Of a stretch of DNA of 64,000 nt, positions 37,683 through 54,953 are shown piece after piece; the stretch's first letter is position 1, and each line of letters starts with the position of its first letter. Under the pieces are notes generated by a model. The model was not told the DNA's origin. It saw only the letters and a list, made by a program, of their open reading frames with translations, and ran no database searches. The DNA comes from Thermoproteota archaeon. Its GTDB lineage: Archaea > Thermoproteota > Thermoprotei_A > EX4484-217-1 > JAPDJV01. The stretch is taken from assembly GCA_029258925.1 (NCBI GenBank), contig JAPDJV010000001.1, positions 9,885 to 73,884 on the forward strand, read 5' to 3'. A program made the position numbers and the translations under genes.

Positions 37683-38216
37683 TTATATAAAAAAGCTTGT
37701 CAGTTTATGCTTTCTTTTCTGATAAGATGATAAGCGTCCTCCTGTTTCAATAGGCTTTATTATCTCATCGTCATGGTCGTAGGTGAAGATGTTCGTGTAT
37801 AGACCCCATTGAATAAAGTTCATGAAAGCCTCGTCTAGGTCGTCTGGATTACTTTTCTTTACAATAATGTCCACAACCTCCTCTCTATCTATTTCCCCTT
37901 TCTCCTCTAACATTTTGAGAATTGTTTTAAAGGGTTCAACGCTAACAAGCTGTTTTCTAAGAATCTTCTTTACAACCTTGGGGTTCTCCATAGCTATTTT
38001 CTCGCCGATACTTGTCAAACTAATGTTTCCCTCCTTAAACTCGAGGAGACCGAGAGCTTCTGCATCGTCGATTACGTGAGACAATATGTCTAAATCAACA
38101 TCTGTTACATTATTGACCTCCGACGCGTCCAGCATGCCTCCACTACTATATGCAACCTCTATAAGGCCAAGCACCTGGCTTATAGAAGATCGGAGAGTAA
38201 GTTTTCTACCCGTCAT
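37683..38216 (-). CDS. hypothetical protein upstream of ABC transporter
   Basis: 177 aa soluble, acidic; no motif recognised. Confidence 0.3.
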   Translation of the reverse strand: MTGRKLTLRSSISQVLGLIEVAYSSGGMLDASEVNNVTDVDLDILSHVIDDAEALGLLEFKEGNISLTSIGEKIAMENPKVVKKILRKQLVSVEPFKTILKMLEEKGEIDREEVVDIIVKKSNPDDLDEAFMNFIQWGLYTNIFTYDHDDEIIKPIETGGRLSSYQKRKHKLTSFFI

Positions 38217-38276
38217 CTCCTATTTATGCACCAATTATAGAGGTTACATAAAACTAGTATTTAAGCTTGAATATTT

Positions 38277-39068
38277 TCAGCTAATGTACTCGTATACTTC
38301 GTCCAGTATTTCCAGGAATCTCTTAGACCTCCTATTTCTCGGCCTAGGTAGGTCTATGACTACCTCTTTTACAACAGTCGTCGGCCTACTGGACAATACT
38401 ATTATCCTATCGGTCATGAATACTGCCTCGTCGACAGCGTGGGTCACCAGTATTATCCCCCTTATTCCCGCAACTCCCATCCTCCATAAATCGAGTATTT
38501 CCGATCTAAGGCTTTCGGCAGTTAGAGGGTCTAGTTGAGAGAAGGCTTCATCTAATAGCAGTAATTGGGGGGAAACTGCTAGTGCCCTAGCTATACTTAC
38601 CCTCTGCTTCATTCCCCCGCTTAACTCTCTAGGATAAGAGTTTTCGAATCCTGCTAAGCCGACTAGAGAAAGGTATCTTCTAGCAATCTCCATAGAAGTT
38701 TTCTTATCCATGCCCCTAGCTTCTAGAACTAAAGACACGTTTTCCAATGCTGTTAACCATGGTAGGAGAGCTGGGGATTGAAAAACCATAGCTATTCTCG
38801 GGGAAATACCCTCTATAGGCTTATTCATGAATAGAATTTGACCTGAGGTGGGCTTTTCGAGGCCAGCAATAATTCTCAACAAAGTTGATTTACCGCAACC
38901 TGATGGACCTAGAATGGCGATGAATTCTCCGTCGTACATTTTGAACGAAACATCTCTAATAACTTCTAGCTTCCTCTTACCGATAACATAGGTTTTCTTA
39001 ACTTTAATTAATTCCAGTAAAACCGGTAGCTCATCCAATTCTTCCACATCCCACCATTCTGTTCCCAC
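38277..39068 (-). CDS. ABC transporter ATP-binding protein (NitT/TauT nitrate/sulfonate/bicarbonate-type)
   Basis: Walker A GPSGCGKST, LSGGMKQR signature, Walker B LLLDEAFS. Confidence 0.75.
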   Translation of the reverse strand: MGTEWWDVEELDELPVLLELIKVKKTYVIGKRKLEVIRDVSFKMYDGEFIAILGPSGCGKSTLLRIIAGLEKPTSGQILFMNKPIEGISPRIAMVFQSPALLPWLTALENVSLVLEARGMDKKTSMEIARRYLSLVGLAGFENSYPRELSGGMKQRVSIARALAVSPQLLLLDEAFSQLDPLTAESLRSEILDLWRMGVAGIRGIILVTHAVDEAVFMTDRIIVLSSRPTTVVKEVVIDLPRPRNRRSKRFLEILDEVYEYIS

Positions 39069-40670
39069 TTAGAGTTCAGCTAGGTATTTCTCACTTATCA
39101 CCTTGTAAAGTCTGCTCCAAATCAGTTTGTTAAATAATACTATGAATATGCTCATCCACATAATATAAAAGAATAATCCGCCTACATCTCCTAAATTAGC
39201 CGCCCTGCTGATCAACCCTCCAATTCCATGAATATAAATAACGTCTTTTCCAGTAGTTATGTATTCAGCTAATATCGTAGTGTTCCATGCACCTCCCCAA
39301 CCACTTATGCTTCCAGTCACTAGGAACGGTAAAATCCCCGGCAATATTATTTTAGATACGTAGAGCCTACCCCTTATATTATATAATCTAGCTACTTGCC
39401 TGAAGTGTAATGGTATCCCCTTTACGCCTCCCATCACGTTGAAGAATATGTACCATTGCATTCCAGTTAAGATGATGAGTATGGATGCTATATTTGGATC
39501 CACACCGTATTTTTCTATTAATATTATGAAGGCTGGATACCATATTGTTGCAGGTATCGAGGCAAGTACCTCTCCTATAATGATCGAGTATGCGAAGAGT
39601 TTACTGCGGTTCTCCACTAAAATGCAGACTGCTAATATCCATCCTACGCTTATGATATATGCTACTATTATTCTGAAAAGCGTTAGAGCTGTTCCAGTTA
39701 AAGCATTATAGAGATATAGTGTGAAATTCATTGAGAAAAAGAATTCAATAATCGTTGGAAACGCTTTACTGATGCAGAATACCCCCAGAAATACTACTGC
39801 AATTATTACACCCACCATAATCATTTTCAGGATCAACATCGCTTTACTGAGAATCCTGTTCCACGTCTCTCTTGGAATTTTACTAATTAGCTGGTGCAAT
39901 CTATCATCGATCTTACTGTAGATTGCGGAGAGAAAGTCTATTAGGAAACTCGTGCTTACCACAGTGATCGTGGGCGAAGTAATAGATCTAGCCACCTCTC
40001 TATATTCCTCAGCTTTCTCAAGAAGAGGATTCCATATTAACAGGTTGACTAGTATTATGGAAGTAAGCATCATTACTAATCCTATGGCTAGCTTATAGAA
40101 ATCTCCCTTATAGGCTGACATCAATATGAATGATCCGAGACCCGGCAATACTATATTAAACTCTCCCATGGAAATCATTTCACACGCTGTTACAAAAAAC
40201 CATCCGCCCGCCCAAGCCATCATGCTATTGTATATTAAACTGTGGAACGTTGACGGTATAACTATTCTGGTAACATACTTTAAACCTTTAATGCCATATG
40301 CTTTAGCGAGATCCTTAAATTCGCTCGGAATAGTTAGAGCACTCTGGTAAACTCCGAAGGTTATGTTCCATGCTTGGCTTGTGAAAATCAAGAAGATTGA
40401 TGCCAATTCAACTCCTATTCTATCAGGGAAGACAGCTACTAGCAAGTATATTGCTACTGGGAAAAATCCTAGTATTGGAACAGACTGCAATATGTCCAAT
40501 ATCGGTATGATGATTTTCCCTAATCTCTCGTTTAAAGCAGCAGCTATGCCCACGGTTAAGCTGAAGACCAGAGATATCATGTAGGCTAGGAAGAGCCTGA
40601 TGTTAGTGAAGATTGTAGCTTCGATGGCGTAGATCCATATCTCTATTGAGACCATGATTACCATCTGCAT
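39069..40670 (-). CDS. ABC transporter permease, tandem-duplicated (two BPD-transport TM domains)
   Basis: 533 aa, ~12 TM segments, two copies of the permease loop. Confidence 0.6.
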   Translation of the reverse strand: MQMVIMVSIEIWIYAIEATIFTNIRLFLAYMISLVFSLTVGIAAALNERLGKIIIPILDILQSVPILGFFPVAIYLLVAVFPDRIGVELASIFLIFTSQAWNITFGVYQSALTIPSEFKDLAKAYGIKGLKYVTRIVIPSTFHSLIYNSMMAWAGGWFFVTACEMISMGEFNIVLPGLGSFILMSAYKGDFYKLAIGLVMMLTSIILVNLLIWNPLLEKAEEYREVARSITSPTITVVSTSFLIDFLSAIYSKIDDRLHQLISKIPRETWNRILSKAMLILKMIMVGVIIAVVFLGVFCISKAFPTIIEFFFSMNFTLYLYNALTGTALTLFRIIVAYIISVGWILAVCILVENRSKLFAYSIIIGEVLASIPATIWYPAFIILIEKYGVDPNIASILIILTGMQWYIFFNVMGGVKGIPLHFRQVARLYNIRGRLYVSKIILPGILPFLVTGSISGWGGAWNTTILAEYITTGKDVIYIHGIGGLISRAANLGDVGGLFFYIMWMSIFIVLFNKLIWSRLYKVISEKYLAEL

Positions 40671-40783: not shown

Positions 40784-40823
40784 GTAATAGGAGAACTATT
40801 CCAATAATAGGAGAACTATTCCA
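40784..40823 (+). repeat. perfect tandem duplication of 20 bp (ATAATAGGAGAACTATTCCA) abutting the GTG start at 40826
   Basis: Copy 1 40784..40803 and copy 2 40804..40823 differ only at the first base; contains GGAG (SD-like). Confidence 0.7.
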
Positions 40824-40825
40824 AG

Positions 40826-41695
40826 GTGAAGACGTTGTTCGACATCGTCAGCTTCCTGTTCTGGATATTATTCTTAATCATTATAGTGACGCCGCAATTA
40901 CAGTATAGGAGTCTCAGGACTGCTAGAATGAGGATTATCAGGGATATCGAGAGAAAATATGGATTAAGAGTTATAACAATGATACATAGACAGGAGAGAA
41001 TAGGGTTCTTCGGTATACCTATATACAGATTCATTGACATAGAGGATTCGGAAGCCGTTGTTAGAGCCATCAGGTCTACTCCACCAGACAAACCTATAGG
41101 TTTAATCTTACATACTCCTGGAGGACTAGTATTAGCAGCATCTCAAATAGCATATGCTCTGAAAAGACATCCCGGGAAGAAGATAGTAATAGTCCCCCAC
41201 TACGCTATGTCTGGAGGGACATTAATAGTCCTAGTAGCAGATGAAATATGGATGGATCCAAATGCCGTCCTAGGACCGCTGGATCCCCAGCTCAACACTG
41301 GTAGGGGAATGTCGCTTCCAGCACCATCGATAATTAAGGTAGCTAAAATGAAGGGCATGAAGGCGTCCGATACAACTCTAATGATAGCTGATATTGCTGA
41401 GAAGGCTCTTGAAGAGGTCCAGGAAATAATAATTGATTTACTTAAAGAAAAAATGGGGGAGGAGAAAGCAAGGAATATAGCTATTGCCCTCACAGAGGGA
41501 AGATGGACCCACGATTACCCGATTACCGTGGAGAAAGCCAAAGAGCTAGGGTTACCTGTAATAGAGAAGGTGCCCCTAGAAGTATATGAGCTAATGTCGC
41601 TGTATCCACAGGCCCATCAGCAGAGACCTGGAATAGAGTACATACCATACCCAATACCGCAACCAGCTAAACCTTTGAGGAGAGAGGGCGGGTAA
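40826..41695 (+). CDS. membrane-anchored Clp-fold serine protease, SDH (S49-like) family
   Basis: 289 aa; N-terminal TM helix, LHTPGG motif and surrounding pattern of SDH proteases. Confidence 0.5.
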   Translation: MKTLFDIVSFLFWILFLIIIVTPQLQYRSLRTARMRIIRDIERKYGLRVITMIHRQERIGFFGIPIYRFIDIEDSEAVVRAIRSTPPDKPIGLILHTPGGLVLAASQIAYALKRHPGKKIVIVPHYAMSGGTLIVLVADEIWMDPNAVLGPLDPQLNTGRGMSLPAPSIIKVAKMKGMKASDTTLMIADIAEKALEEVQEIIIDLLKEKMGEEKARNIAIALTEGRWTHDYPITVEKAKELGLPVIEKVPLEVYELMSLYPQAHQQRPGIEYIPYPIPQPAKPLRREGG

Positions 41696-41759: not shown

Positions 41760-42605
41760 TTGGGGATTGATATGAGAGCTTTTATATCAGTTGACCTAGA
41801 GGGTATGCCTTACATCGTTACCGTTGAACACCTACTATTGAAGAGAGCTTTATACGATGAAGCTAGAAACATAGCAACTGAAATAACATCAATTGTTTGT
41901 GAAGCACTCCACGAGGAAGGCGTCGATGAAATAGTAGTAGCAGATAGCCACGGACCAATGGTTAACATACGTCCCGAAAAAATCCCCGACTACGTTCATC
42001 TAATAAGAGGCTACCCGCGTCCCCTAAGCATGGTTACAGGAGGCTTCGAGTGCGATATGGCAATATTCTTAGGTTATCATGCTAAACCGGGCACGATGAA
42101 ATCAACATTCGACCACACATATAGTGGCAGATCTTTTCATAAAGTAAAAATTAATGGTGTTGAGGTGAGCGAGTACCTTCTGAACGCCTACGTGCTCGGA
42201 TATAGAGGAGTACCCGTAGTAATGGTGGCTGGAGACGATAAGCTCATAGAGGAAGTCATGGAGACGGCTCCATGGATAGAAACCGTAGTATTGAAGAAGT
42301 CTTACGGCAGATATTCTGCTCAAAGTCCAAGCATGAGGAAGCTGAGGGAAATGCTCACGTATGCAGCTAAGAGGTCTATAAGAAAGTTCAATGAAAAAAG
42401 AGTTAAACCCTTAATCCCTTCCACTCCAGTAAATGTGGAGATTTCATTTACTTCAACAGGATATGCTGATGTAGCTGAACTCCTCCCTAAAGCTAGGCGC
42501 ATAAACGGTTTAACAGTTAGCTTCCAGAGTGAAAACATTGAAGAAGCATATAAAACCATAGAGTTGATTGCATTGGCCTGTGCTGGCGTGAGATCAGAGC
42601 TATAG
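41760..42605 (+). CDS. D-aminopeptidase DppA-like (peptidase M55)
   Basis: 281 aa; N-terminal ISVDLEGMP and SHG metal motifs typical of M55 DppA. Confidence 0.5.
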   Translation: MGIDMRAFISVDLEGMPYIVTVEHLLLKRALYDEARNIATEITSIVCEALHEEGVDEIVVADSHGPMVNIRPEKIPDYVHLIRGYPRPLSMVTGGFECDMAIFLGYHAKPGTMKSTFDHTYSGRSFHKVKINGVEVSEYLLNAYVLGYRGVPVVMVAGDDKLIEEVMETAPWIETVVLKKSYGRYSAQSPSMRKLREMLTYAAKRSIRKFNEKRVKPLIPSTPVNVEISFTSTGYADVAELLPKARRINGLTVSFQSENIEEAYKTIELIALACAGVRSEL

Positions 42606-42615
42606 CAGCGTGCTT

Positions 42616-43970
42616 CTAAGCAATTCTCCCATACTCTTTTATAAATGATATAGTATACATTATGCTTCTCTTAAAGCCGTCAACAGTTATGTACTCGTTA
42701 GGTGTGTGAGCCCTCGCACCATAGCCTAAACCAGCTCCTACTACTGGAAGTTTTAGGAGTTTATTGAATAGGTAGAATGGTGCTGATCCGGGCATCATTG
42801 GAACTATGCATGGCTCAAATCCTAAATTGCGATAGGCCTGTATCGACGTGCTAACTAGAGGATGTTCGATATCGGTTTTGCTCCAATCATACATATCATG
42901 AACTATTACGTCGACGTCTTGGAATCCACGCTTATTTAAGTAATTAATTATTTTCTCTAGAGTTCTAGCAGGATTCATGTTGGGTACGAGTCTCACATCT
43001 ATCCTAGCCCTAGCCTCCGAGGGTGTGATAGTTTTAGTGCCTGAGCCCATGTATCCTGCCTCGATTCCGTCGACGTTTATGGAGGGCTCGAAGAATACTT
43101 TCCTGTAAAACTCCTCGCCAGAACACCTCAACTCTTTAACCCCATGCTCTTCTACGAGTTCTTCGAGTCTAAAGTATTCCATTAAATCTTTCAAAAACTC
43201 CAAGTCTCTACTAGGTATCTCCACGTCATCGTATAATTCTTCAACCAGTACTTCTCCTCTGGGACCTATCAAACTAGAAATAGCATGTATTATTCTGGCA
43301 ACAGAGCTTACTATGCCCTGAGCTAGCGATGAGTGTACGTCTGAAGAGGCCTTCACGCATTTTAATTCCAGGAATATTATGCCCTTGTTCCCTAAAATTA
43401 CTGCAGGCTTCCCTGCTTATTCTCGGTCATTTCCTGGAAATATACTCCCCCTGCACCCATGAGTTCCTGCTTATGGTCTTCAACGAACCTGGGCATGCTT
43501 ATACTCCCTAACTCCTCTTCTCCCTCAACCACGAATACTACGTCAAACGGCAGTTTTCCTTCAACTTCTAAAACCGTTTCTAATCCACACATGAAAGCCA
43601 TTAAAGGCCCTTTACTGTTTACTGCTCCTCTTGCAATAATCTTATTTCCGATGATTTCCGCTTCAAATGGGGGAGAAATCCACTTGTCTACTGGATCAGG
43701 GGGTTGGACATCGTACATGCCGTATGATATTAGGGGTTTTGATTCTCCAGATCCCTTAATCACTCCATATACTATTGGGTGGCCCTCGTATCTAATGGGT
43801 CTGGCCTCCCCGCCCATCTCCTCTATGTATTGTTTGACTAGTGCTGCACAGTCCTCTATGCCCTCTCCCGTCCCAGATATGCTGGGTTGCATTAGTAGTG
43901 ATCTGAGTTTTTCCAGGTATTCGTCGAATCTCTCATTTAGTATTTTGAAGTATGAATCCAGATTCGCCAT
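42616..43970 (-). pseudogene. M20-family metallopeptidase (dipeptidase/deacylase) split by a frameshift near 43395
   Basis: ORF 43398..43970 has the M20 catalytic domain (YDVQP, EGEEELG); ORF 42616..43356 has the dimerisation/C-terminal domain (GNKGIIFLEL reading upstream, HSS, HTPNE); frames differ by 1. Confidence 0.55.
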
Positions 43971-43994
43971 TTACCCACCCGCATTCAAGGTTAT

Positions 43995-45155
43995 CTACTT
44001 GTATACTTCAAAGAGTTGCCTGTTCAAGTATTTTTCAACAATATCCTTTCTCAGCTCTACACCTAACCCGGGCTTCTCGGGGACCTTAATGTGAAGAACT
44101 CCATTAATCATTGTCTCCTCTAGTCCCACTCCAGGATCCTCCAATATACCCCAATCCGCTCCCGGAATTCTGATGTCCCCGAAAACCATGTTTCCCAATG
44201 CTGCGAATATGTGGATGGCTGCGGCGTGGCCTATGCTTGTCTCACCCATTCCACCCATGTAAGTCGGTATCCCGGCTACTTCTGCAATAGCATTTATTCT
44301 GAGAGCATTATATATTCCGCCTGATTTCATCAGCTTTATATTTATTATATCGCAAGCCCTCTTCTCAATGGCTCTTAGCGCGTCTCTGGAACTGTGGACG
44401 CTTTCGTCGAGCATTATGGGCGTGTCTACTGCTCTCCTTATCTCCGATAAGCCGTCTAGATCCCACCAGACTATTGGTTGCTCAACTAGTTCAAGCTCGT
44501 ATTTTTCCATCAACCTTATTGCTTTTATTGCTCTTTTAGGTTTAATCCACCCCTGATTAGCGTCAGCCCTTATCTTCACACCCCACCCAACAGCTTCTCT
44601 TATCAACTTTATTTTCTCTGCATCCTTATAGGGGTCTTCTCCCACCTTTATTTTCAATATCTTAAGACCTCTATCAACGTCTCTTTTAACCTTCTCTAAA
44701 ACCTCTCTTACATCTGCTATTACTGCACCACCTACTTCAGGTATAACATTCCTCGTCATACCGCCTATAATTTTGCAGACTGGTTCACCTGTAGCCTTAC
44801 CCACAATATCGTATAACGCCATTTCGATTGCTGCTTTAGCGCTCGGATTCCCCACTGTCGCGCGATCCATTAATCTAACCGCTTCATCGATATTGAAGGG
44901 ATCTAGTCCTATCAAGCATTTTTCGAGTCTCTCCTTAATTATTGCAGTTACTGTTCCCATAGTTTCGCCTGTAAACTCGTATGCAGGGCAGGCCTCTCCG
45001 AAACCTGTTATTCCACTATCTGTTTTCACTTCGACGTAAATAAAGGGCTGACTAAGATAAGTCGCTGTTGCTATTTTAAAAGGCTTCTTATAGGGTATTT
45101 CAACGGGGTAAACCCTTATTTCAGTTATCTTCACGTCTATGCTCACCCGAGTCAT
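43995..45155 (-). CDS. enolase-superfamily dipeptide epimerase (L-Ala-D/L-Glu epimerase-like, MR/MLE family)
   Basis: 386 aa; KIKVG motif, metal-ligand Asp/Glu pattern of the MR/MLE barrel. Confidence 0.6.
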   Translation of the reverse strand: MTRVSIDVKITEIRVYPVEIPYKKPFKIATATYLSQPFIYVEVKTDSGITGFGEACPAYEFTGETMGTVTAIIKERLEKCLIGLDPFNIDEAVRLMDRATVGNPSAKAAIEMALYDIVGKATGEPVCKIIGGMTRNVIPEVGGAVIADVREVLEKVKRDVDRGLKILKIKVGEDPYKDAEKIKLIREAVGWGVKIRADANQGWIKPKRAIKAIRLMEKYELELVEQPIVWWDLDGLSEIRRAVDTPIMLDESVHSSRDALRAIEKRACDIINIKLMKSGGIYNALRINAIAEVAGIPTYMGGMGETSIGHAAAIHIFAALGNMVFGDIRIPGADWGILEDPGVGLEETMINGVLHIKVPEKPGLGVELRKDIVEKYLNRQLFEVYK

Positions 45156-45230
45156 ACATTTTATAAAAGGTTTGAAAACTAAATGACTTTAAAAAACTTA
45201 AATATATTGCATATGGAAATACAATATTTT

Positions 45231-46997
45231 TCACGAACATTTAACACCTCTTCCCTTTCTTAGAGCCATCCCACACTTTTCGCCAGTATATTCTCCATTG
45301 ACAACCACTGGAACACCATTAACCACTACATGTACTATTCCGCTGGAATACCTTCGCGGTTCGATAAAGTCTCCATTATCCTTGATCTTGTTCTCGTCAA
45401 AAACTACTATATCAGCCCAAGCACCAACTTTCAAGACGCCTCTATTCTCCAGTTTAAACCTTTCAGCAGGATAGGGAGTTACTTTTCTTATGGCTTCCTC
45501 TAATGCTAAAACCCTCTTCTCGTAAACATATCTTCTTATAAGCCTAGTGAATGCCCCGTAGGTGTTCATGTGTGGTAGAAAGTATGGTGGATAGTTAACT
45601 TTCCACTTAACGTCTAGTGCAAATGTGTCTGAACCAATCATACATCTAGGGTCTTCGAGGAATTCCTCTACCTCTCCCTCACTCACATAATCTCTCTTAA
45701 TTCTCGTCTCCGTGTCGAGTTCTAGAAGTCTGAAGACGGTTTCGTACTCGTTTAAGCCCATGATTTTCGAAACTTCTGAAATACTTTTACCAACATAATC
45801 CTCTACAGCATGTTCTATTACTACTATCGTATGCATCCAGTACGGGTTCTTCCCTCCCCTAATATCCCTTAAAATCTCTTCCTTAACTTCAGGTATTTTC
45901 AATGCTCTTAACACTCTCTCTATGGATCCCATCTCTATTATCCATGGCGATAATAGAGATTTTAAATAAGGTATTACGAATAGTCCTCCGCTAGTATTAG
46001 GTATTATATCATACGTTACGTTTATTCCTTTACCAAGTGCATCATCTATAATCTTTATTGTCTGCCTTGCAGCACACCTGTGCATATAATCGTTTATCAG
46101 CGGAGGATACACATCGTAGACTGAGAACAAGTGGGATATGTGGACAGGGACTCCTGTTCTCCTACCTATCTCTATAGCCTCCACTACGCCATAGTATTTT
46201 TCCCCGAGAAAACCTTTAACCCTAGACCTCACATGGCTAACGTAGATGCCGCCATGATCTCTCAACGTCTCCACTAACTCCACTATCTCACCCGTTGTAG
46301 CATAACGGCCTGGCTCGTAGTCTAGTCCGGTTGAGAAACCAATTGCCCCCTCATCTAGAGACTCTTCTAACAACTCTTTCATCTCTCTTAGCTCACTTTT
46401 ACTGGCTTCACGCTTGTAATCTAAGCCCATTACAGCTGCTCTGATAGTGTTGTGGCCCGCCATCGGCACGTAATTTATTGACACTCCTCTTTCCTCGAGT
46501 CTATCTAAGAATTCTCCAATAGTTTTCCAATCGATGATCCAACCATACTTCTCCCTCATTTTCTCGTTAACCTTTTCAAGAGAGAGCATAACCAGCCTAT
46601 ACCACTTGTATGGCGATATCTCATGCCACCAATCATACTCCCAGTCGTCCATCAACCACATTTCTCTCAGAGGCCTTGGAGAATACCCGCAATTTCCCCC
46701 TATTACCGTGGTGACTCCTTGGTAAACATAGTTTAAGGCTTCAGGGTAGTGGAGGAGTATTGTGTCGGCGTGAGTGTGAACATCTATGAAGCCAGGGGAG
46801 ACTATTAGGCCTTCAGCGTTTAAAGTGATTTCACCAGTTTCTCCCCCAAGGTCTCCTATGAAAGATATTTTTCCACGTGAAATCCCTATGTCTCCCTTAA
46901 ATCTCTCCCTACCAGTACCGTCCACTATTGTCCCGTTCTTGATTACAACATCGTAGACCATTATTTCACCTGTCTTGAACCTATGAGTATCGACCAT
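45231..46997 (-). CDS. N-acyl-D-amino-acid deacylase (D-aminoacylase) family amidohydrolase
   Basis: 588 aa; N-terminal YDVVIKNGTIVDGTG..GDIGI..GKI and FIDVHTHAD metal motif of the D-aminoacylase family; true start maybe Met at MVYDV. Confidence 0.55.
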   Translation of the reverse strand: MVDTHRFKTGEIMVYDVVIKNGTIVDGTGRERFKGDIGISRGKISFIGDLGGETGEITLNAEGLIVSPGFIDVHTHADTILLHYPEALNYVYQGVTTVIGGNCGYSPRPLREMWLMDDWEYDWWHEISPYKWYRLVMLSLEKVNEKMREKYGWIIDWKTIGEFLDRLEERGVSINYVPMAGHNTIRAAVMGLDYKREASKSELREMKELLEESLDEGAIGFSTGLDYEPGRYATTGEIVELVETLRDHGGIYVSHVRSRVKGFLGEKYYGVVEAIEIGRRTGVPVHISHLFSVYDVYPPLINDYMHRCAARQTIKIIDDALGKGINVTYDIIPNTSGGLFVIPYLKSLLSPWIIEMGSIERVLRALKIPEVKEEILRDIRGGKNPYWMHTIVVIEHAVEDYVGKSISEVSKIMGLNEYETVFRLLELDTETRIKRDYVSEGEVEEFLEDPRCMIGSDTFALDVKWKVNYPPYFLPHMNTYGAFTRLIRRYVYEKRVLALEEAIRKVTPYPAERFKLENRGVLKVGAWADIVVFDENKIKDNGDFIEPRRYSSGIVHVVVNGVPVVVNGEYTGEKCGMALRKGRGVKCS

Positions 46998-48004
46998 ACA
47001 GCTCTTGCTTCACTCGATACGTCTATTTCCCCGATTCTATGGCATGCAACAACGTGTCCTCCTCCTATATCCACCAAGCTGGGCTCTTTCCTAGAACATT
47101 TTTCGATGGCATAAGGACATCTTGGATGAAACCTGCATCCTTTCGGAATATTTATTGGACTTGAGGGCTCTCCTCTAATAATCATTTTCTTGAGAGACTT
47201 TCTCCTGGGATCCGGTATGGGGGCAGCGGATAAGAGTGTAGCTGTATAAGGATGCTTCATATTCTTGAACAACTCGTCTGTTTCAGCTATTTCAACTATT
47301 TTACCTAAGTACATTACTCCAATTTTATCACTCATGTGCCTTATTGTAAGTAGGTCGTGGCTTATAAAGAGGTAGGTTAAACCCATATCTTTTTGCAAAT
47401 CTAGTAGGAGGTTCAGTATTTGAGCTCTTACGGAAACATCTAGAGAAGACGTGGGCTCGTCTAGAATTATTAGGTCGGGCCTCAATATTATAGCTCTAGC
47501 TATTGCAACTCTCTGCTGCTGTCCCCCGCTAAGCTGGTGAGGATATCTGTGGACGTGTTCTACTCCTAGCCCCACTTTTCTTAATGTTTCTATAATCAAT
47601 TCGTCTGCCTTTTCTCCTGAAGCTATTTTATGTATTTTAAGCGGTCTAAGCAAGTGTTGTCTGACAGTCATTCTAGGATTTAGAGAAGAGTAGGGGTCTT
47701 GAAAAACCACGCTGACTCTGCGCCTGAACTCCTTCATTTTTCTTCTGGGAATTTCAGTGATATCCATACCGTCGAAGAAGACTTTGCCTGATGTAGGCTT
47801 GTATAGCATAAGTATTGTTAGACCTACTGTGGTTTTGCCGGAACCGGATTCGCCAACTAGACCAAAAGTTTCCCCTCTATTGATACTGAATGAAACCCCG
47901 TCGACAGCTTTCACAACGATCTTCTTCCTGAATAAAATGCCCCTGCTGTGGACAAAGTACTTCTTTAAATTTACTACCTCAAGTAACGGGTTCAAAGGAT
48001 TCAC
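46961..48004 (-). CDS. peptide ABC transporter ATP-binding protein (OppF/DppF-like)
   Basis: [24 protein letters not shown]-terminal oligopeptide-transporter extension with Cys residues. Confidence 0.8.
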
Positions 48005-48972
48005 CTACTATACATGTGGCATGCAACAATATGTCCTCCCAAATCTATAGTCTCAGGAGGCTTCTCTCTACAAATGTCCATGGCGTACTTGCATCTTGGA
48101 TGGAATTTGCAACCCCTGGGAGGGTTTATGGGGCTTGGAAGTACCCCCGGTATGTGCTCCAACTTTTTCTTCCTCTCAGGCTTCAAAGGCAGACAAGCTA
48201 TCAACCCCTTAGTGTACGGATGGAGAGGGTTCTCGAAAACCTCCTCTACCTCACCCATTTCGACAATGTTGCCGAGGTACATTACTCCAACTCTATCGCT
48301 CATCTCAGCTACAACGCCGAAATCATGGGTTATCATGAGCATCGATGTTTTATAGTCCTTCTTCAACTCCATTAGTAAGTCGAGTATTTGGGCCTGAATT
48401 GTGACATCTAATGCTGTAGTCGGCTCATCGGCTATCAGCAGCTTTGGTCTACACGAGATCATCATTGCTATGAGTGCTCTCTGCCTCATGCCACCGCTGA
48501 ACTGATGAGGATAATATCTTGCCCTAATATCGGGGTCAGGAATCTTGACTCTTCTAATCAATTTGATAGCCTTCGATATAGCACTCTTCTTATCTTCTCC
48601 GAAATGAGCCATTAAGGGTTCTCCTATCTGAAATCCCACTGTTAAAATGGGGTTGAGAGACGTCATTGGGTTTTGAAATATCATTGCAATTTCTTTACCC
48701 CTAATCTTCCTCATATCGGCTTCATTAAGTTCCAATAGATTTCTTCCCTCAAACATCACTTTACCAGACACTATTTTCCCTGGAGGCCCAATCAGCCTTA
48801 GAATGCTTAGAGCAGTAACGCTCTTGCCACACCCGGTTTCTCCAACTAGGGAGAATACTTCGTCTCTCATAATGTTAAAGCTGACTCCATCTACGGCCTT
48901 AACAACTCCTCTGCTAAGGTAAAAGTATGTTCTAAGATTTTCCACAGATAGCAGAGGCTCCATTTTCGACAC
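48001..48972 (-). CDS. peptide ABC transporter ATP-binding protein (OppD/DppD-like)
   Basis: [25 protein letters not shown]; overlaps neighbours by 4 nt. Confidence 0.8.
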
Positions 48973-49875
48973 CTAGATCTTCAGTTTAGGATCAAGCATG
49001 TCTCTGAGGCCGTCTCCAAGCAGGTTGAATCCTAGGGCTGTTATGACAATGAATATTCCTGGGAAAGTCGTTATCCAAGGTGCATAAATCATTTTGTCTC
49101 TTCCCTCAGCAAGCATTGCACCCCAATCCGGCGTTGGAGGCTGAGCCCCAAATCCTAGGAAGCTCAGAGCAGTTGTCGACAGTATGGCGCTTGGAATAGT
49201 TAGAGTCGCTAAAACAATTATTGGAGACAGCACGTTCGGCAGTATGTACCTAACTATAATATTGAAGTTGTTTTCGCCTATTGCCCTAGCAGCTAGTATG
49301 AACTCTCTGTTAACGAGGGATTGAACCTTCGCTCTAGTGATTCTGGTGAAAGGAGGCCAGCTTACTATAGCAATTGCGGCTACAACGTTTAGTAGACCGG
49401 GGCCAATAATTATCACTATCCCCAAAGCTAATACTAATGGTGGAAGTGCCCAGATGATGTCTGTTATAGCTGAGATCACTTTATCAGCTATTCCACCGTA
49501 GTAACCGGCTATCAGCCCCAATACAACACCTATCGATGCCTCGATTAACATCACTATTAGGCCGACCATTAAAGCTATTCTCGATCCATAAATCACTCTA
49601 CTAAAAATACATCTTCCGAGGTCGTCGGTTCCAAAAGGATACTCTGAGCTAGGTGGCTTCAACCTATCTGCCACATTGGTTTCATCATATCTCCTTAAAG
49701 CTATGAGCGGAGCCGCGATTGCTATAATAGTCACTGCGCACACTATGAAGAAGCCTATTAGCGCCATTTTATAATAGAACATCATTCTTAGACCTTCTAT
49801 AATTCTTCTAGCATTCAACAAAACGTTATCCATAATACCAATCTTAGACTTATACATCTCACCCGGCCTCCTCAA
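48973..49875 (-). CDS. peptide ABC transporter permease (OppC/DppC-like)
   Basis: 300 aa, six TM, EAA-like loop. Confidence 0.75.
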   Translation of the reverse strand: MRRPGEMYKSKIGIMDNVLLNARRIIEGLRMMFYYKMALIGFFIVCAVTIIAIAAPLIALRRYDETNVADRLKPPSSEYPFGTDDLGRCIFSRVIYGSRIALMVGLIVMLIEASIGVVLGLIAGYYGGIADKVISAITDIIWALPPLVLALGIVIIIGPGLLNVVAAIAIVSWPPFTRITRAKVQSLVNREFILAARAIGENNFNIIVRYILPNVLSPIIVLATLTIPSAILSTTALSFLGFGAQPPTPDWGAMLAEGRDKMIYAPWITTFPGIFIVITALGFNLLGDGLRDMLDPKLKI

Positions 49876-50797
49876 GCCTTATTCTAGGGTCGAGTATGGC
49901 TGAGACTATATCGCCTAGAATGTTCGATATGACTGTTAGTATAGCTATGATTAATATGATTGCTTGAACCACGGGATAGTCTTGTCTAACAATGCTCTTG
50001 TAGAGCAGCCTACCCATTCCAGGCCAGGCGAAAACCGTTTCTATCACAACAGCTCCACCTATAAGCCAGGGTAGTTGTAGGAAAAACATTACTATTACGG
50101 GTATCAAGGCATTTTTGAATGCATGTCTAAATATGACTGTTCTAGAAGGAAGACCTTTAGCCCAAGCAGTTCTAACGTAGTCCTCAGTTAACACCTCAAG
50201 CATTTCAGATCTTATCAACCTAGCAATCATGGCTATTGAGGGTAAAGCTAGAGTCAGTGCGGGTAATATCAGGGATTCTGGCCCACTATAACCTGATAAT
50301 GGAAGCCACTTCAAGTACAATCCGAATAGGAGCATTAGCATTAATCCAAGCCAGAAACCTGGCATGGAGTAGAAGAATATTGCAAAACCCATTGCAAGGT
50401 AATCAATCCAACTTCCCCTCTTTAAAGCTGCAACCACGCCTATCGGTATTCCAATAATGTAAGCTATGATCAAAGATGTTAAAGTTAACTCTATTGTAAA
50501 TGGAAGTCTAGAGAATATTAGATCGCTAACAGGCTGTCTATGAATAATTGATGTCCCGAAGTCTCCTTGAATAAAGTGGCTTAACCAATAAAAATATTGA
50601 ATGTAGATGGGTTTATTTAGACCCCATGCCTCCCTCAGCTCCTCTATCCTGGACGGATCAACTCTTTCTCCGACAATAAGTACTATTGGGTCTCCTGGGA
50701 TCATGTGCATTATTGAAAAAAGGATTATTGATACTCCTAGTATCGCTGGTATTCCCAAGAATATCTTCTTAACAGCATATTTCAGCATTCCAGCCAA
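49859..50797 (-). CDS. peptide ABC transporter permease (OppB/DppB-like)
   Basis: 312 aa, six TM, conserved permease loop. Confidence 0.75.
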   Translation of the reverse strand: MAGMLKYAVKKIFLGIPAILGVSIILFSIMHMIPGDPIVLIVGERVDPSRIEELREAWGLNKPIYIQYFYWLSHFIQGDFGTSIIHRQPVSDLIFSRLPFTIELTLTSLIIAYIIGIPIGVVAALKRGSWIDYLAMGFAIFFYSMPGFWLGLMLMLLFGLYLKWLPLSGYSGPESLILPALTLALPSIAMIARLIRSEMLEVLTEDYVRTAWAKGLPSRTVIFRHAFKNALIPVIVMFFLQLPWLIGGAVVIETVFAWPGMGRLLYKSIVRQDYPVVQAIILIIAILTVISNILGDIVSAILDPRIRLEEAG

Positions 50798-50826
50798 AGC
50801 CGCTTAATCCCTCCCACGCTAGTGGC

Positions 50827-52458
50827 CTATGACTCTCCTATAATTATTTTGACATCATTTATCACGATACTCCCGTAGGGTGGGAGAACTATCAATCCCA
50901 CCACGTTCTTTCTTACAGCAGTGTACTCCTTGTTCACGAAGAGGGGTATCATCGGTAGATCTTCTAGTAGTATGCTTTGAATCCTGCTATACACTTTCGT
51001 CCTCTCAACAGGATCCATAACAGTCCTACCTTCTTCGAGCAACTGGTCGACTGTTGGATTGGCATACGTGTAGTTCGCTATAGTGCCGTGGACCAAGTAA
51101 ATCAGTATATCTGGGTCTGCCCAAGACCATGCTCTCAAAGCTAAGTCGAAATCCCACTCCCTAGTCTTCTGTCTAACATAGGAGTACTCAAACTCCCTAA
51201 CATTAACCTTAATACCTATTTGCTTAAGTTGGTCTTGTATTAGTGGGCCAACTCTCTTGAGCTGTGGCCTGTCTACTGGGACAAGCAATGTTAACTCTAG
51301 TGGTGCACCGTCCTTATCTACATATCCATCGCCATCGGTGTCCGTCCACCCTGCACTGGCCAGTAGGGACTTGGCTTCATCGATGTTCGTGCTGTAAGTG
51401 TTTTTCGCTATCTCCTCGATAGTCTCGTTATAGCACATCATGGATGGAGATATGAAGCAGTACCATGGTATTGAAGTGTTCTCCAATACTTGAACAAGGC
51501 TGTCCCTATCAACAGCTAAAGCTATAGCCTTCCTAACTCTCACATCGTCTAGAGGGGGCTTCCTCACGTTCACCATGATGTAGTCTATTCCTGGTTGAAG
51601 AGTGTAGTAGAGCTTTATGTCTGGGTTCTGCATTAGCCTGCTGACAGCGTCTACAGGCACTCCCCTCACGATATCAACATTCCCAGCCTCTAACTCGCTT
51701 ATTCTCGTTAAGTCTTCAGGTATGAACCTTATTATGACCTCGTCGATGTACGGGTTGGGCCCCTTATTCTCCACGAATGGCAGATTTGTCTTGTACTTGT
51801 CGTTCCTCACTAACACTATGTGTGAGCCGTGGACCCACTCCTTCAGCTTGTAAGGCCCACTCCCAATAGCCTCCACGTTAAACTGCTCGTTACCCATAGA
51901 CCTAGCTGAGACAACGTCGACAGGAGCTCCGTAAACAGTTATTAGAACAGCCCATAAATATGCTGGTGGCTCCTCGCACACTAGTTTGACAGTGTAGTCG
52001 TCTATTATTTCTATTGATGATACTACTGCGAAGTCCTCGGCGTAGGGACTTATCTGCCTATATCTTTCAATAGAGTCCTTTATTACTTGGGCTGTTATGG
52101 GGTTTCCGCTGGAGAATTGAGCGTCTTGTGGCAAGTGGAATATTATCGATTTACCGTTATCCGTTACTTCCCATGAAACAGCCAGGTCGCATACCATGTT
52201 CATGTTTTCGTCGAATACTACTAGGGGCTGATATATTAGGTCGTGGATTTCGTTTGCCCATGAAACTTGTTGGATGTCTAGTCCTTCAGGTTCTTCTGGG
52301 ATAGCTATTACTAGAGTCTTCTTATATTGTATTTGTGGGGTTGGAGATGGCATTAGATGTGGATATATGAAGAATATTATTGGAACAGCTATGGCAACTA
52401 TAATAACTACTGCAATTAATGCATGAATTTTACTAATTGCCCTCCTCGAATAACTCAA
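50827..52458 (-). CDS. extracellular solute-binding protein, family 5 (peptide/nickel SBP) with N-terminal membrane anchor
   Basis: 543 aa; N-terminal TM helix, size and layout of OppA/DppA SBPs. Confidence 0.7.
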   Translation of the reverse strand: MSYSRRAISKIHALIAVVIIVAIAVPIIFFIYPHLMPSPTPQIQYKKTLVIAIPEEPEGLDIQQVSWANEIHDLIYQPLVVFDENMNMVCDLAVSWEVTDNGKSIIFHLPQDAQFSSGNPITAQVIKDSIERYRQISPYAEDFAVVSSIEIIDDYTVKLVCEEPPAYLWAVLITVYGAPVDVVSARSMGNEQFNVEAIGSGPYKLKEWVHGSHIVLVRNDKYKTNLPFVENKGPNPYIDEVIIRFIPEDLTRISELEAGNVDIVRGVPVDAVSRLMQNPDIKLYYTLQPGIDYIMVNVRKPPLDDVRVRKAIALAVDRDSLVQVLENTSIPWYCFISPSMMCYNETIEEIAKNTYSTNIDEAKSLLASAGWTDTDGDGYVDKDGAPLELTLLVPVDRPQLKRVGPLIQDQLKQIGIKVNVREFEYSYVRQKTREWDFDLALRAWSWADPDILIYLVHGTIANYTYANPTVDQLLEEGRTVMDPVERTKVYSRIQSILLEDLPMIPLFVNKEYTAVRKNVVGLIVLPPYGSIVINDVKIIIGES

Positions 52459-52609
52459 TATTCCTCTACCTTCCCACCAAATTCTTTACTTTGGTTTAGC
52501 CTTAAGGGTCATATTTAAGTTTTAATGAGGAGAGAAGTCTTTTAATTAAATAATTCTAAATATTAGTATTTGGCTCTGCTCGCATTCTCGATAATTTTTA
52601 TTTAGTTGA

Positions 52610-53863
52610 TTAAATACAGTTCAATTCGTCCTCTGAGAATACTATGTTTCCTTTAACGATAGTTAAACTAGGCTTACCCTTAAGTCTTAATCCTTTAAAT
52701 GGAGAGTACTTCGCTTTGGATTTGAATTCAGCCGGGTTTATCGTGAACTCCTCTCCAATGTTGATTATTGTGAGAGATGCAGGTGAACCTGGAGTAATAC
52801 TACCATACCCTTTAAGTCCTAGGATTTCGGCTGGTCCCCTACTAGTTAAGTTAACGAATTCTTTAATCGATATAACCCCGTATTCGACAAATGTCCACAT
52901 TAACGGTATTAAAGTTTCTAGACCCGGAATACCCGGCGGACACTTATTAAATTCTAACGATTTCTCATCTACGCTGTGGGGAGTGTGGTTGCTTGTTATT
53001 GCATCAATCCATCCCTCAATTAAGGCTTCAACCAGTCCTTCAACTATATCCTCGGGTCTTAGGGGTGGATCTACTTTAGCTAAACACTTCATAGATTTCT
53101 CGTGGTCACAGTCGAGGAGTAAGTAGTGGGGTGAAGTATCTACGGTTGCACCACCTATTTTAGCTAACAGTACTCCGCTTCTACAAGTCATGTGAGTAAA
53201 GTGGACTCTTACTCCAGTGTCCTCAGTTATCTCTAAAACTCTCTTAATGTACTCTCTTTCAACCTTAATACTTCTATCAATCCACCTAAATCCTGCCTCG
53301 CAGCGTTCCTCAGAACTTCTCATTTGAGCACTGTTGAAGACTATGATCTTCCCCGTTGAAGCAACTATTTTAGCGATGTTTGAAATCATGTCGATGTTCT
53401 CTAGGTCCTCTGGGATTACCTCGAATCCCAGTACTCTGCAGTGTTTTGCAAGCATCCATGCCTCCTCGACGCTGTCAGGTACTCCAGCGTAACAATAATA
53501 TTCCGGAGCGTTTTCCCTAACATAAGACTTCAATTTCTCCTCTAACACTGAAACAGATTTTACTTGGGGAAGAGTATTCGGGGAATCCACTACTACAACG
53601 ATCCCCCCAGACCCCGCTGCGCTTAGACCCGATTCCCCATCCTCCTTATACGAATATTTCAACCCCATTAAATGAGCGTGTATGTCGATTACTCCAGGTA
53701 TCAGAACATACTTGTTCTCCTCGGTGAAATCTAGTTCAACTTGTCCTTGAACGCTGTGAAGAGGACCATAAACACCAGTTATAATACCGTTGCTGATAGT
53801 GACTGTTGCTAAAACAGTCGTATTACCATGCACTATTTTACCTTTATAAACAATATCTTCCAT
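52610..53863 (-). CDS. dihydroorotase-like cyclic amidohydrolase, paralog of pyrC
   Basis: 417 aa; co-linear with pyrC at 22877..24130 (same length, shared IDIHAHL..SYKED..DSPNT blocks), ~40% identical by eye. Confidence 0.6.
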   Translation of the reverse strand: MEDIVYKGKIVHGNTTVLATVTISNGIITGVYGPLHSVQGQVELDFTEENKYVLIPGVIDIHAHLMGLKYSYKEDGESGLSAAGSGGIVVVVDSPNTLPQVKSVSVLEEKLKSYVRENAPEYYCYAGVPDSVEEAWMLAKHCRVLGFEVIPEDLENIDMISNIAKIVASTGKIIVFNSAQMRSSEERCEAGFRWIDRSIKVEREYIKRVLEITEDTGVRVHFTHMTCRSGVLLAKIGGATVDTSPHYLLLDCDHEKSMKCLAKVDPPLRPEDIVEGLVEALIEGWIDAITSNHTPHSVDEKSLEFNKCPPGIPGLETLIPLMWTFVEYGVISIKEFVNLTSRGPAEILGLKGYGSITPGSPASLTIINIGEEFTINPAEFKSKAKYSPFKGLRLKGKPSLTIVKGNIVFSEDELNCI

Positions 53864-54080: not shown

Positions 54081-54953
54081 GTGGATGTAGAGTTCTTGGC
54101 CTTCGATAGCATGGGTGTTAGATCGCAGTCAACCATTATTAGAACAAAAGACTTGACAATACATATTGATCCAGCAGCCGCACTTGCACCTAGAAGATAC
54201 GGTTATCCTCCACACGAGTTAGAGCTGAGAAGACTGGTAGAGCTTTGTGAAATTATCGCTGATAGAGCTAGGGAGGCAGACGTAATAATTATAACACACT
54301 ACCACTACGACCACCACGACCCAGGCCGCCTAGTACCGATAGAGATCTATAAGGGGAAAACGGTTTACATTAAGGACCCCGAGAGAAAAATCAATCTAAG
54401 TCAGAAAATTAGGGCTAGAAGGTTCATTAACCTCATCAAGCCCATAGCTAGGAAAATAGAGATCGCTGACTCCAGGACTCTAAGCATAGGCGACACTGCC
54501 ATAAAATTCTCTAAACCTGTTCCACACGGCTCTAACAATAAATTGGGGTATGTCGTAGAGGTATCGATATCTGACGGAGAGCAGAAATTAGTGTTTTCAT
54601 CGGATGTCGAGGGGCCTGTCCTCGGAGAACAAGTTGAATTCATATTAGCAGAGAAGCCAGACATGGCGATAATAGACGGGCCAATGACATACATGCTCGG
54701 ATATAGGTATAGTTTTGAAAGCTTGAAGCAAAGCATTGAAAACTTAAGGAAGATAATTATGAACGGAACTAAAACCATTGTTCTAGACCACCATCTGCTT
54801 AGGGATCTGGAATATAAGAATAGGATTAGTGAAGTACTCGACACTGCCTCGATTATGGGAGCCAGAATACTATCCGCAGCAGAATACATGGGGCAGCCTT
54901 TGAACATGTTGGAGGCAAATAGAAGAAAACTTTACCAGGAAAATAAATGTTAA
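54081..54953 (+). CDS. metallo-beta-lactamase-fold hydrolase
   Basis: 290 aa; HYHYDHHDP (HxHxDH) motif. Confidence 0.5.
   Translation: MDVEFLAFDSMGVRSQSTIIRTKDLTIHIDPAAALAPRRYGYPPHELELRRLVELCEIIADRAREADVIIITHYHYDHHDPGRLVPIEIYKGKTVYIKDPERKINLSQKIRARRFINLIKPIARKIEIADSRTLSIGDTAIKFSKPVPHGSNNKLGYVVEVSISDGEQKLVFSSDVEGPVLGEQVEFILAEKPDMAIIDGPMTYMLGYRYSFESLKQSIENLRKIIMNGTKTIVLDHHLLRDLEYKNRISEVLDTASIMGARILSAAEYMGQPLNMLEANRRKLYQENKC

Follow-up and report, generated by a model that had tools for sequence, protein, structure and literature searches.

Which compounds are imported and degraded by the products of the gene cluster at positions 41760-53863 of a 64,000-nucleotide stretch of contig JAPDJV010000001.1 (assembly GCA_029258925.1) from a Thermoproteota archaeon, and do these compounds carry D-amino acid residues? 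The cluster comprises eleven genes of the window (the whole stretch that was analysed, to which all coordinates refer) and brings together an ATP-binding cassette (ABC) importer of the Opp/Dpp type, a peptidase of family M55, a dipeptide-epimerase-like protein of the enolase superfamily, an M20 exopeptidase, an amidohydrolase of the D-aminoacylase family and a dihydroorotase-like protein. An earlier sequence-only reading had described the gene set as contiguous and mostly same-strand, and the open reading frame (ORF) map together with Pfam profile scans indeed recovers all eleven genes at the coordinates given and places ten of them on the minus strand, with the M55 gene as the sole one on the plus strand. 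We regard the locus as a lineage-specific cluster of a hyperthermophile by which short peptides or peptide-like amides are imported and then dismantled in the cytoplasm, and give this reading a probability of about one half. Within it, we infer that a specialised handling of dipeptides with D-residues, originating from bacterial cell walls or from heat racemisation, is likely.

That so many genes related to peptides and amides lie side by side is not due to chance. Moreover, the M55, dipeptide epimerase and D-aminoacylase families all have characterised members that handle D-residues, and three of the cluster enzymes fall into these families. The uptake and processing of D-amino-acid-containing peptides, as proposed in the sequence-only reading, is partly supported: it is backed by these three families and by the compact arrangement of uptake and hydrolysis genes, whereas the carboxylate site of the amidohydrolase, a D-I-R motif in the epimerase-like protein and the missed equivalog cut-offs, which we will focus on below, speak against it. 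No signal peptide is present in any of the cytoplasmic enzymes of the cluster. The best relatives of several cluster proteins are proteins from metagenome-assembled genomes (MAGs) labelled Thermoprotei, Desulfurococcaceae, Zestosphaera or Bathyarchaeia, with at most 60% identity, and 53 ORFs together have an IVYWREL fraction of 0.464, which by proxy corresponds to optimal growth near 100 °C. Together with the Sulfolobus origin of the best solved relative of the M20 protein, these findings support only indirectly that the DNA comes from a thermophilic archaeon, and the predicted hyperthermophily would make racemised peptides plausible as a substrate pool.

The importer and the coupled amidohydrolase

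The importer had been described as a complete five-gene Opp/Dpp-type peptide ABC transporter, and all five components are matched by Pfam. The extracellular family-5 substrate-binding protein consists of 543 amino acids (aa) with an N-terminal membrane anchor (50827..52458, minus strand; PF00496 SBP_bac_5, 288.5 bits). It is followed by the permeases of the OppB/DppB type (312 aa, 49859..50797, minus strand; BPD_transp_1_N and BPD_transp_1) and of the OppC/DppC type (300 aa, 48973..49875, minus strand; OppC_N and BPD_transp_1), and by two ATPases of the OppD type (323 aa, 48001..48972, minus strand) and of the OppF type (347 aa, 46961..48004, minus strand), both with an ABC_tran and a C-terminal oligo_HPY domain. 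The transporter genes overlap or are separated by 0-29 nucleotides (nt), and a Shine-Dalgarno-like GGTGGGAAGGTAGAGG precedes the TTG start of the binding-protein gene. Among solved structures, the best relatives of the binding protein are 5u4o and AppA of Bacillus subtilis (1xoc), and opine, nickel and peptide binders, with the opine binder 6hlx among the top relatives, and the characterised sugar binder 4pfu scores much lower than the peptide, opine and nickel binders. Going by this ranking of solved relatives, short peptides may be the ligand.

The amidohydrolase gene (45231..46997, minus strand), which encodes an Amidohydro_3 protein of a variant clade of the D-aminoacylase family, is translationally coupled to the importer. 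The stop codon TAA of the OppF-type ATPase gene (46963-46961) overlaps with the ATG of Met13 of the amidohydrolase (46961-46959) as TAATG, and a GGTGA lies 5 nt upstream of this ATG (46959-46970, minus strand). Therefore, the amidohydrolase belongs to the transporter operon. The gene call of 588 aa begins at ATG 46997 and overlaps the ATPase gene by 37 nt; Met13 (ATG 46961) is probably the actual start, which gives a protein of 576 aa. The best solved relatives are the N-acyl-D-Glu deacylase Bb3285 (3gip, 211 bits) and the Alcaligenes D-aminoacylase (1m7j, 203 bits), the latter match rising to 315 bits with a clade profile, and the family also includes the carbohydrate de-N-acetylase 9kb1. The metal and catalytic residues H74, H76, C103, H255, H289 and D457, as well as Tyr227 of the n-site, do not vary among 32 relatives and have their counterparts in 1m7j and 3gip. 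The protein also has two clade-specific insertions of ~45 and ~60 residues, the second of which comes immediately behind the hinge bearing the side-chain pocket. The coupling of amidohydrolase and importer is lineage-specific. In a contig scan with an alignment of the amidohydrolase clade, all of the matches listed were bacterial relatives with at most 36% identity, and a Dpp-type transporter adjoined in two of 80 cases; a Zestosphaera relative has an Opp-type operon at a distance of 5 kb.

The epimerase-like protein and its transporter linkage

Separated from the amidohydrolase gene by 75 nt lies the gene for the epimerase-like protein of the MLE subgroup of the enolase superfamily (386 aa, 43995..45155, minus strand; MR_MLE_N and MR_MLE_C), followed after a further 24 nt by the M20 gene. 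Among solved structures, the epimerase-like protein is closest to a dipeptide epimerase of Enterococcus faecalis (3jva, 239 bits), to the Bacillus cereus MR/MLE-family protein 2p88 (238 bits), an N-succinyl-Arg/Lys racemase, and to YkfB (1jpm, 217 bits). In an alignment of 120 sequences the catalytic MLE set is complete, with the acid/base pair of two Lys and the Mg site, K168, K170, K274, D198, E225 and D250 corresponding to K160, K162, K268, D191, E219 and D244 of YkfB. Arg24 of YkfB, which binds the Glu side chain, is replaced by Ala31, and therefore the protein is not an L-Ala-D/L-Glu epimerase. Asp327 aligns with D321 of YkfB, where D321 and D323 form a D-x-D motif that binds the dipeptide's alpha-ammonium group, and where the exchange of Asp321 for Gly gives o-succinylbenzoate synthase (OSBS) activity (bioRxiv 10.1101/2022.05.01.490185). 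An ordinary OSBS, which had been named as an example of an assignment that would refute a D-peptide function, was rejected: the TIGR01928 score is 160.8 with a cut-off of 200.65, and Asp327 is present where OSBS has Gly. The epimerase equivalogs were missed as well, with 213.7 vs. 500 for NF041118 and 87.2 vs. 343 for NF011708. Thus, the earlier designation as dipeptide epimerase is supported by the catalytic set, by Asp327 and by transporter-linked relatives, and is put in doubt by D-I-R and by the missed cut-offs; on sequence grounds, we assign the protein to a clade that is sister to the dipeptide epimerases and uncharacterised.

The linkage to Opp/Dpp transporters became visible in a metagenome scan with an alignment of the epimerase clade, which gave 80 loci, 58 of them with at least 43% identity. 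Genes for Opp/Dpp ATPases, permeases or binding proteins occur within 3 kb in 19 of these 58 loci, usually at 0.5-1 kb and in two subclades, and when only loci with at least 5 kb of flank are considered, Opp/Dpp neighbours are present in 8 of 25. This linkage is far above the expectation for random genes and is the sole conserved linkage of the cluster. Another relative of the epimerase-like protein adjoins gatCAB. A relative with 56% identity (L003, 10001-14204, and L004; on a 375-kb contig) is convergent with the gene for a 550-aa protein of the S12 beta-lactamase family (PF00144 and DUF3471), and a gene for an M28 peptidase lies near this relative.

The M20 and M55 peptidases

The M20A exopeptidase gene (42616..43970, minus strand) is split in the window into two ORFs, 43970-43398 and 43356-42616 (minus strand), as already noticed in the sequence-only reading. 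The frameshift is due to one missing G in the G-run at 43411-43413, GGG instead of GGGG, which is the single difference in the M20 gene between the window and three independently assembled contigs of near-identical sequence. The gene is intact (GGGG, 451 codons) in the ENA/NCBI assembly and in one Logan assembly (L001/L007, L008). The frameshift reflects a homopolymer polymorphism or a sequencing error and not an old pseudogene. When repaired, the protein of 451 aa matches the Sulfolobus solfataricus carboxypeptidase Sso-CP2 (4mmo) with 260 bits, followed by CNDP-type dipeptidases, and both halves contain the catalytic as well as the dimerisation domain profile (PF01546 Peptidase_M20 and PF07687 M20_dimer).

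The set of metal ligands is incomplete, as judged from the positions established for CPG2, PepV and CNDP2: Met85 stands in for the His of H-x-D, Asn118 for the bridging Asp and Gly174 for the Asp of the fourth ligand, and the catalytic Glu151 as well as Glu152 and His422 are retained. An exhaustive search of representatives with the N-terminal fragment and an alignment of 94 full-length relatives revealed that the ligand pair co-varies, with His and Asp in 59 of 94, Met and Asn in 29 and only few mixed pairs. This co-variation argues for a maintained M20 subgroup rather than decay, and, with Met and Asn changing together in so large a subgroup, pseudogenisation was rejected as the main explanation. 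In the Met/Asn subgroup of M20A, one metal site out of two is probably missing, which would make it a one-metal variant; we know of no characterised member.

The M55 gene (41760..42605, plus strand) is convergent with the M20 gene, and only 10 nt lie between the two stop codons. Its product of 281 aa scores 298.4 bits against PF04951, for which the cut-off is 25, and covers positions 1-263 of the 264 of this profile. The only solved relative is DppA of B. subtilis (1hi9, 122 bits). D12, E14, H64, H107 and E138 align with D8, E10, H60, H104 and E133 of DppA, with all five identical, and these are reported to be zinc or catalytic residues (Remaut et al. 2001). The protein remains below the DppA equivalog NF058634 (181.6, cut-off 430). 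By its sequence it is a sound member of the family, and the earlier label of a DppA-type D-aminopeptidase holds for family and active site, with the equivalog score speaking against the full name; D-stereospecificity is only predicted.

A diverged copy of pyrC

The dihydroorotase-like protein (417 aa, 52610..53863, minus strand), whose membership in the cluster is uncertain, had been counted as a second cyclic amidohydrolase. The window contains a canonical pyrB-pyrI-pyrK-pyrC-pyrD operon (26345-21958, minus strand) 28 kb away from this gene, with pyrB at 26345-25407, pyrI at 25402-24923, a pyrK-like gene for an Fe-S subunit at 24909-24130, pyrC at 24130-22877 (417 aa, with all catalytic residues) and pyrD at 22890-21958, all on the minus strand. 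The identity as a housekeeping pyrC was therefore rejected for the dihydroorotase-like gene. Among 5.8 billion clustered proteins, its nearest relative beyond copies of at least 90% identity is the pyrC product of the window itself (45% identity), and no orthologue was found there beyond these copies. In a neighbour-joining tree the protein is sister to this resident PyrC, on a longer branch, and it narrowly misses the dihydroorotase models NF001541 (295.7 vs. 310) and TIGR00857 (272.1 vs. 279.05).

Compared with 16 homologues, among them the PyrC of the window, the cluster copy alone has M66 in place of the substrate-binding Arg after HxH, E148 in place of the carboxylated Lys, N177 in place of the beta5 His and N292 in place of the beta8 Asp, the roles of these positions being those generally known for the amidohydrolase superfamily. 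H62, H64, H221 and H224, many fold motifs and an intact ORF are kept. Since four catalytic or substrate residues are lost, the protein cannot work as a normal binuclear cyclic amidohydrolase and is no longer counted as a functional enzyme of the hydantoinase/dihydroorotase type. We regard it, on the basis of this comparison, as a lineage-specific, diverged duplicate of pyrC and as a candidate pseudoenzyme with possibly a binding or regulatory role. Nothing but its position ties it to the cluster. Catalytically inactive relatives of this kind, such as Pseudomonas PyrC' and the dihydropyrimidinase-related proteins, likewise have a dihydroorotase/hydantoinase fold in which several metal or catalytic residues are replaced. 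Unlike Pseudomonas PyrC', the copy described here adjoins a transporter cluster instead of pyrB, and a working pyrBI-pyrK-pyrC-pyrD operon is present elsewhere.

A possible degradation route and what weighs against it

In the reading that we prefer, the importer would deliver di- or oligopeptides, from which the M55 peptidase would trim N-terminal residues, of the D-Ala type by analogy with DppA. The epimerase-like enzyme would invert the C-terminal residue of L-Xaa-D-Yaa dipeptides, and the M20 enzyme would then cleave the L-L product, which is the same logic as that of YcjG followed by PepD in Escherichia coli. The amidohydrolase would cleave an amide in an imported compound that probably has no free alpha-carboxylate, because the carboxylate-binding c-site of the enzyme carries Asn/Asn and not Tyr/Arg.

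This c-site leads to the observations that weigh against a D-peptide function. In D-acylases the c-site is formed by a Tyr of the PYP motif and an Arg (Y279 and R373 in KleDacyl), and both are highly conserved in all D-acylases studied (PMC12149444). In the amidohydrolase, the Tyr is replaced by Asn334 (DIIPNT vs. DIYPYP or DAYPYV) and the Arg by Asn478 (PHMNTYG vs. PHPRLWG), and Asn/Asn is also the consensus of the whole 588-aa clade. Therefore, amide hydrolysis is presumably kept, and recognition of the free carboxylate of D-amino acids is presumably lost. The earlier assignment to the D-aminoacylase family is sound with regard to family and metal site; with the c-site Tyr and Arg absent, however, the protein is no classical N-acyl-D-amino-acid deacylase, and the name D-aminoacylase is unjustified. 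Also in the databases, the names D-aminoacylase and N-acyl-D-amino-acid deacylase are probably wrong for the clade of ~590 aa. The Asn/Asn clade occurs under the name D-aminoacylase in MAGs of Thermoprotei, Bathyarchaeia, Chloroflexota and Bacillota. Relatives of the amidohydrolase with 41-53% identity have unrelated neighbours, namely a sugar-type ABC system at one locus, a second amidohydrolase, an M20 protein and a creatininase at another, and a 2-hydroxyacid dehydrogenase and a CoA-transferase at further loci.

In the epimerase-like protein, R329 takes the place of the second ammonium-binding Asp (D323 of YkfB), so that the motif reads D-I-R and not D-x-D. The closest clade (53-59% identity) mostly has Glu at this position (D-V-E), with some Asn, Gly, Ala and Val, while the canonical D-L-D is found in a more distant group from Bathyarchaeia annotated as dipeptide epimerase; 2p88 has V-E-L at the D-x-D positions of YkfB. 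At the other loci of the epimerase clade that were examined, no relatives of the M20, M55 or amidohydrolase proteins were found. One relative with 55% identity (L100, 1-12465) sits between Opp-type ATPase genes and a block that encodes two MttB-family methyltransferases, RACo, a corrinoid protein, MtrH, a saccharopine dehydrogenase and BKACE, a context that points to quaternary-amine, betaine-type or modified-amino-acid substrates. Archaeal Opp/Dpp-type systems can carry sugars, too, and the broken form of the M20 gene (GGG) is found not only in the window but also in one other Logan assembly (L002/L009).

Finally, profile hidden Markov models, by which the sequence-only reading had suggested classifying each enzyme, leave every enzyme of the cluster below its NCBIfam equivalog cut-off (for the amidohydrolase, PRK09061 gives 178 with a cut-off of 340), and a substrate is thus not established for any of them. 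Of the five enzymes, only M55 keeps to the family-defining residues; the amidohydrolase, the epimerase-like protein, the M20 enzyme and the dihydroorotase-like protein deviate from them. With such unusual active-site changes in four of five enzymes, substrates are not readable from the family names. The arrangement of four enzymes was not found in any relative examined and is seen in this organism only.

Alternative explanations

The simplest alternative is ordinary use of L-peptides, in which normal oligopeptides are imported, M55, M20 and the amidohydrolase act as general exopeptidases or amidases, and the D label comes from the names of distant relatives. It agrees with all enzyme scores lying below the equivalog cut-offs, with the nearest solved relatives of M20 being L-specific carboxypeptidases and dipeptidases, with an amidohydrolase devoid of a carboxylate site for D-amino acids, and with a single solved M55 enzyme, which leaves the specificity across that family unfixed. 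However, plain hydrolysis of L-peptides would leave an enolase-superfamily enzyme catalysing a 1,1-proton transfer without a role, although this enzyme is intact here, adjoins M20 and has relatives that are linked to Opp/Dpp genes. As M55 in addition retains every active-site residue of DppA, and a D-stereospecific peptide system has a precedent in a hyperthermophilic archaeon (PMC2651629), we consider ordinary L-peptide use unlikely, while giving it serious weight. We place less trust in a non-peptide pathway, in which the importer takes up an N-acyl or N-alkyl amino-acid derivative (for example an N-succinyl or N-acetyl compound, an opine, a betaine or an amino-sugar acid), which is racemised by the enolase-superfamily enzyme and whose D and L forms are then deacylated by the amidohydrolase and M20. 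Here 2p88, the N-succinyl-Arg/Lys racemase, ties as best solved relative, Arg329 could bind an anionic acyl group, and a racemase beside an M20 deacylase corresponds to the known arrangement of N-succinyl-amino-acid racemases (NSAR). The clade member among genes for MttB, the corrinoid protein, RACo, MtrH and BKACE, the de-N-acetylase 9kb1 in the family of the amidohydrolase and the opine binder 6hlx near the binding protein fit this pathway as well. What makes it improbable is that Asp327 is kept, which is Gly or absent in OSBS/NSAR-type enzymes, that profile scans detected no acyltransferase gene in the cluster, that M55 is an aminopeptidase family, and that the amidohydrolase is without the carboxylate site that N-acyl-amino-acid substrates would need.

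A more elaborate version of the D-peptide reading is a dedicated salvage route for D-containing peptides that were racemised by heat or come from cell walls, whose parts are the Asn/Asn amidohydrolase, acting for instance on internal or amidated D-residues, the epimerase relative with D-x-R, the one-metal Met/Asn M20 and a dead dihydroorotase, recently duplicated and recruited as a ligand-binding or regulatory subunit; we hold it to be a long shot. Least credible of all is a decaying or only partly functional locus, in which adjacency has no present physiological meaning. The M20 frameshift in the window and in one other assembly, the loss of metal ligands in M20 and in the dihydroorotase-like protein and the arrangement being seen in this organism only would be in line with decay. 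It is contradicted by the intact M20 gene of two assemblies, by the Met/Asn pair of 29 of 94 representatives, which marks a maintained variant, by the dihydroorotase-like ORF, which is intact, 45% identical to its paralogue and rich in fold motifs, and by M55, the epimerase-like protein, the amidohydrolase and the transporter, which are intact with complete catalytic sets.

Comparison with known systems

In B. subtilis, ykfA-D lie next to dppB-E, and the pathway of YcjG followed by PepD is described as well (PMC2954226). The cluster resembles dppABCDE-ykfABCD, a region with the L-Ala-D/L-Glu epimerase YkfB and peptidases for murein peptides, in that a DppA-type peptidase of family M55, a five-component Dpp/Opp importer and an MLE epimerase-like enzyme share one neighbourhood (PMC2954226), and its epimerase-like protein shares with YkfB the KxK/K/D-E-D set and the first ammonium-binding Asp. 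In contrast to B. subtilis, there is neither an LD-carboxypeptidase YkfA nor an NlpC/P60 endopeptidase YkfC, and an amidohydrolase and an M20 enzyme are found instead; Arg24 and Asp323 of YkfB are replaced by Ala31 and Arg329, and the host is an archaeon without murein. The epimerase and dipeptidase genes of E. coli are not known to be arranged as a pair. The succession in the murein-tripeptide route of MpaA, YcjG and PepD, i.e., epimerisation of the C-terminal D-residue of a dipeptide and cleavage by an M20-family dipeptidase, would be the same here, with a gene pair 24 nt apart (PMC2954226). Unlike PepD, the M20 enzyme of the cluster is Sso-CP2/CNDP-like and is without two or three of the five metal ligands. 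With characterised D-aminoacylases the amidohydrolase has in common the fold, the metal ligands (HxH/Cys/His/His), an Asp as general base and the Tyr of the n-site; it differs by the Asn/Asn c-site, by two insertions (~45 and ~60 residues), by ~100 additional residues in length and by a score below the NCBIfam cut-off (PMC12149444).

The closest archaeal precedent is Pyrococcus abyssi, where the D-stereospecific S12 peptidase Pab87 was described in 2009 as having two neighbours, a dipeptide ABC transporter and a gene with the annotation D-aminoacylase, and where the use of environmental D-peptides was proposed for this neighbourhood (PMC2651629). Both hosts are hyperthermophilic archaea, at least by prediction in our case, and in both an amidohydrolase annotated as D-aminoacylase stands beside a dipeptide ABC transporter and a peptidase. 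The Pab87 peptidase is self-compartmentalising and its family D-stereospecific. Differences are the peptidase family, S12 there and M55 here, the phylum, and the enolase-superfamily and M20 partners, which are not reported for P. abyssi. Given the precedents of dpp-ykf and Pab87, the concept is not new, and the claim that such a cluster is uncommon and poorly described in Thermoprotei is softened by the P. abyssi report of 2009 (PMC2651629). New is the combination of M55, an epimerase-like protein, M20 and a variant amidohydrolase in a Thermoprotei-like hyperthermophile, with deviant residues in four of five enzymes.

If D-peptides are indeed used, scavenging of such peptides, which was proposed for Pyrococcus in 2009 and has been studied little since, would reach beyond Thermococcales into a Thermoprotei-like lineage that employs another set of enzymes, and the locus would be a concrete test system for how hyperthermophiles handle heat-racemised peptides. 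Moreover, three sizeable uncharacterised subgroups with probably misleading names come into view. These are the 'D-aminoacylases' without a carboxylate site, the Met/Asn M20 'peptidases' and, as the third, an enolase-superfamily group, linked to Opp/Dpp transporters, of relatives called 'o-succinylbenzoate synthase' or 'dipeptide epimerase'. The pseudo-dihydroorotase derived from the resident pyrC is a clear case of its kind. The value lies mainly in annotation quality and enzyme discovery and not in the pathway idea, and current understanding is not overturned.

Transcription signals and neighbouring genes

A 151-nt AT-rich spacer with TATA-like elements separates the dihydroorotase-like gene from the binding-protein gene, and a run of six T is read 3' of the amidohydrolase gene. 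From the intergenic regions, the binding-protein gene and the epimerase-like gene may each have an AT-rich promoter region of their own. A scan for bacterial-type signals gave 30 promoter-like sites vs. 28 expected and 9 terminator-like sites vs. 9.6 expected, and such bacterial-type models are uninformative for an archaeon. No Rfam family matched the window at the gathering threshold or the cluster at E ≤ 1.

Upstream of the M55 gene, at a distance of 64 nt and on the same strand, lies the gene for a membrane-anchored SDH-type ClpP-like serine protease (289 aa, 40826..41695, plus strand; PF01972, 409 bits; NF047768, 395 bits with a cut-off of 250). An N-terminal hydrophobic segment is read in this protease as well as in the binding protein of the importer. 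It is more likely that M55 is co-transcribed with this protease gene than with the rest of the cluster, and a functional tie between the two would be putative. A perfect tandem duplication of 2 x 20 nt (TAATAGGAGAACTATTCCAA, 40785-40824, plus strand) stops one base ahead of the GTG with which the protease gene starts, and may serve as a site for a regulator or have arisen by recent duplication; nothing else of relevance came out of the repeat scan of the cluster. Beside the protease gene, a second, distinct ABC system (37683-40670, minus strand) comprises a double permease of 533 aa, an ATPase and a protein whose C-terminal domain is AAA-associated.

On the other side, the cluster is flanked by genes that look unrelated to peptides. 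One encodes an MBL-fold protein (54081-54953, plus strand) that passes the archaeal equivalog PRK04286 with 361 bits vs. 286, the other a protein of 618 aa (55033-56889, minus strand) that carries a membrane anchor at each end and gives a weak match of the GH99 type. Just past the pyr operon and ~13 kb from the cluster, genes for a 640-aa peptidase of the M28 family (27405-29327, plus strand) and for a protein with ACT and V4R domains (26538-27335, plus strand) are located.

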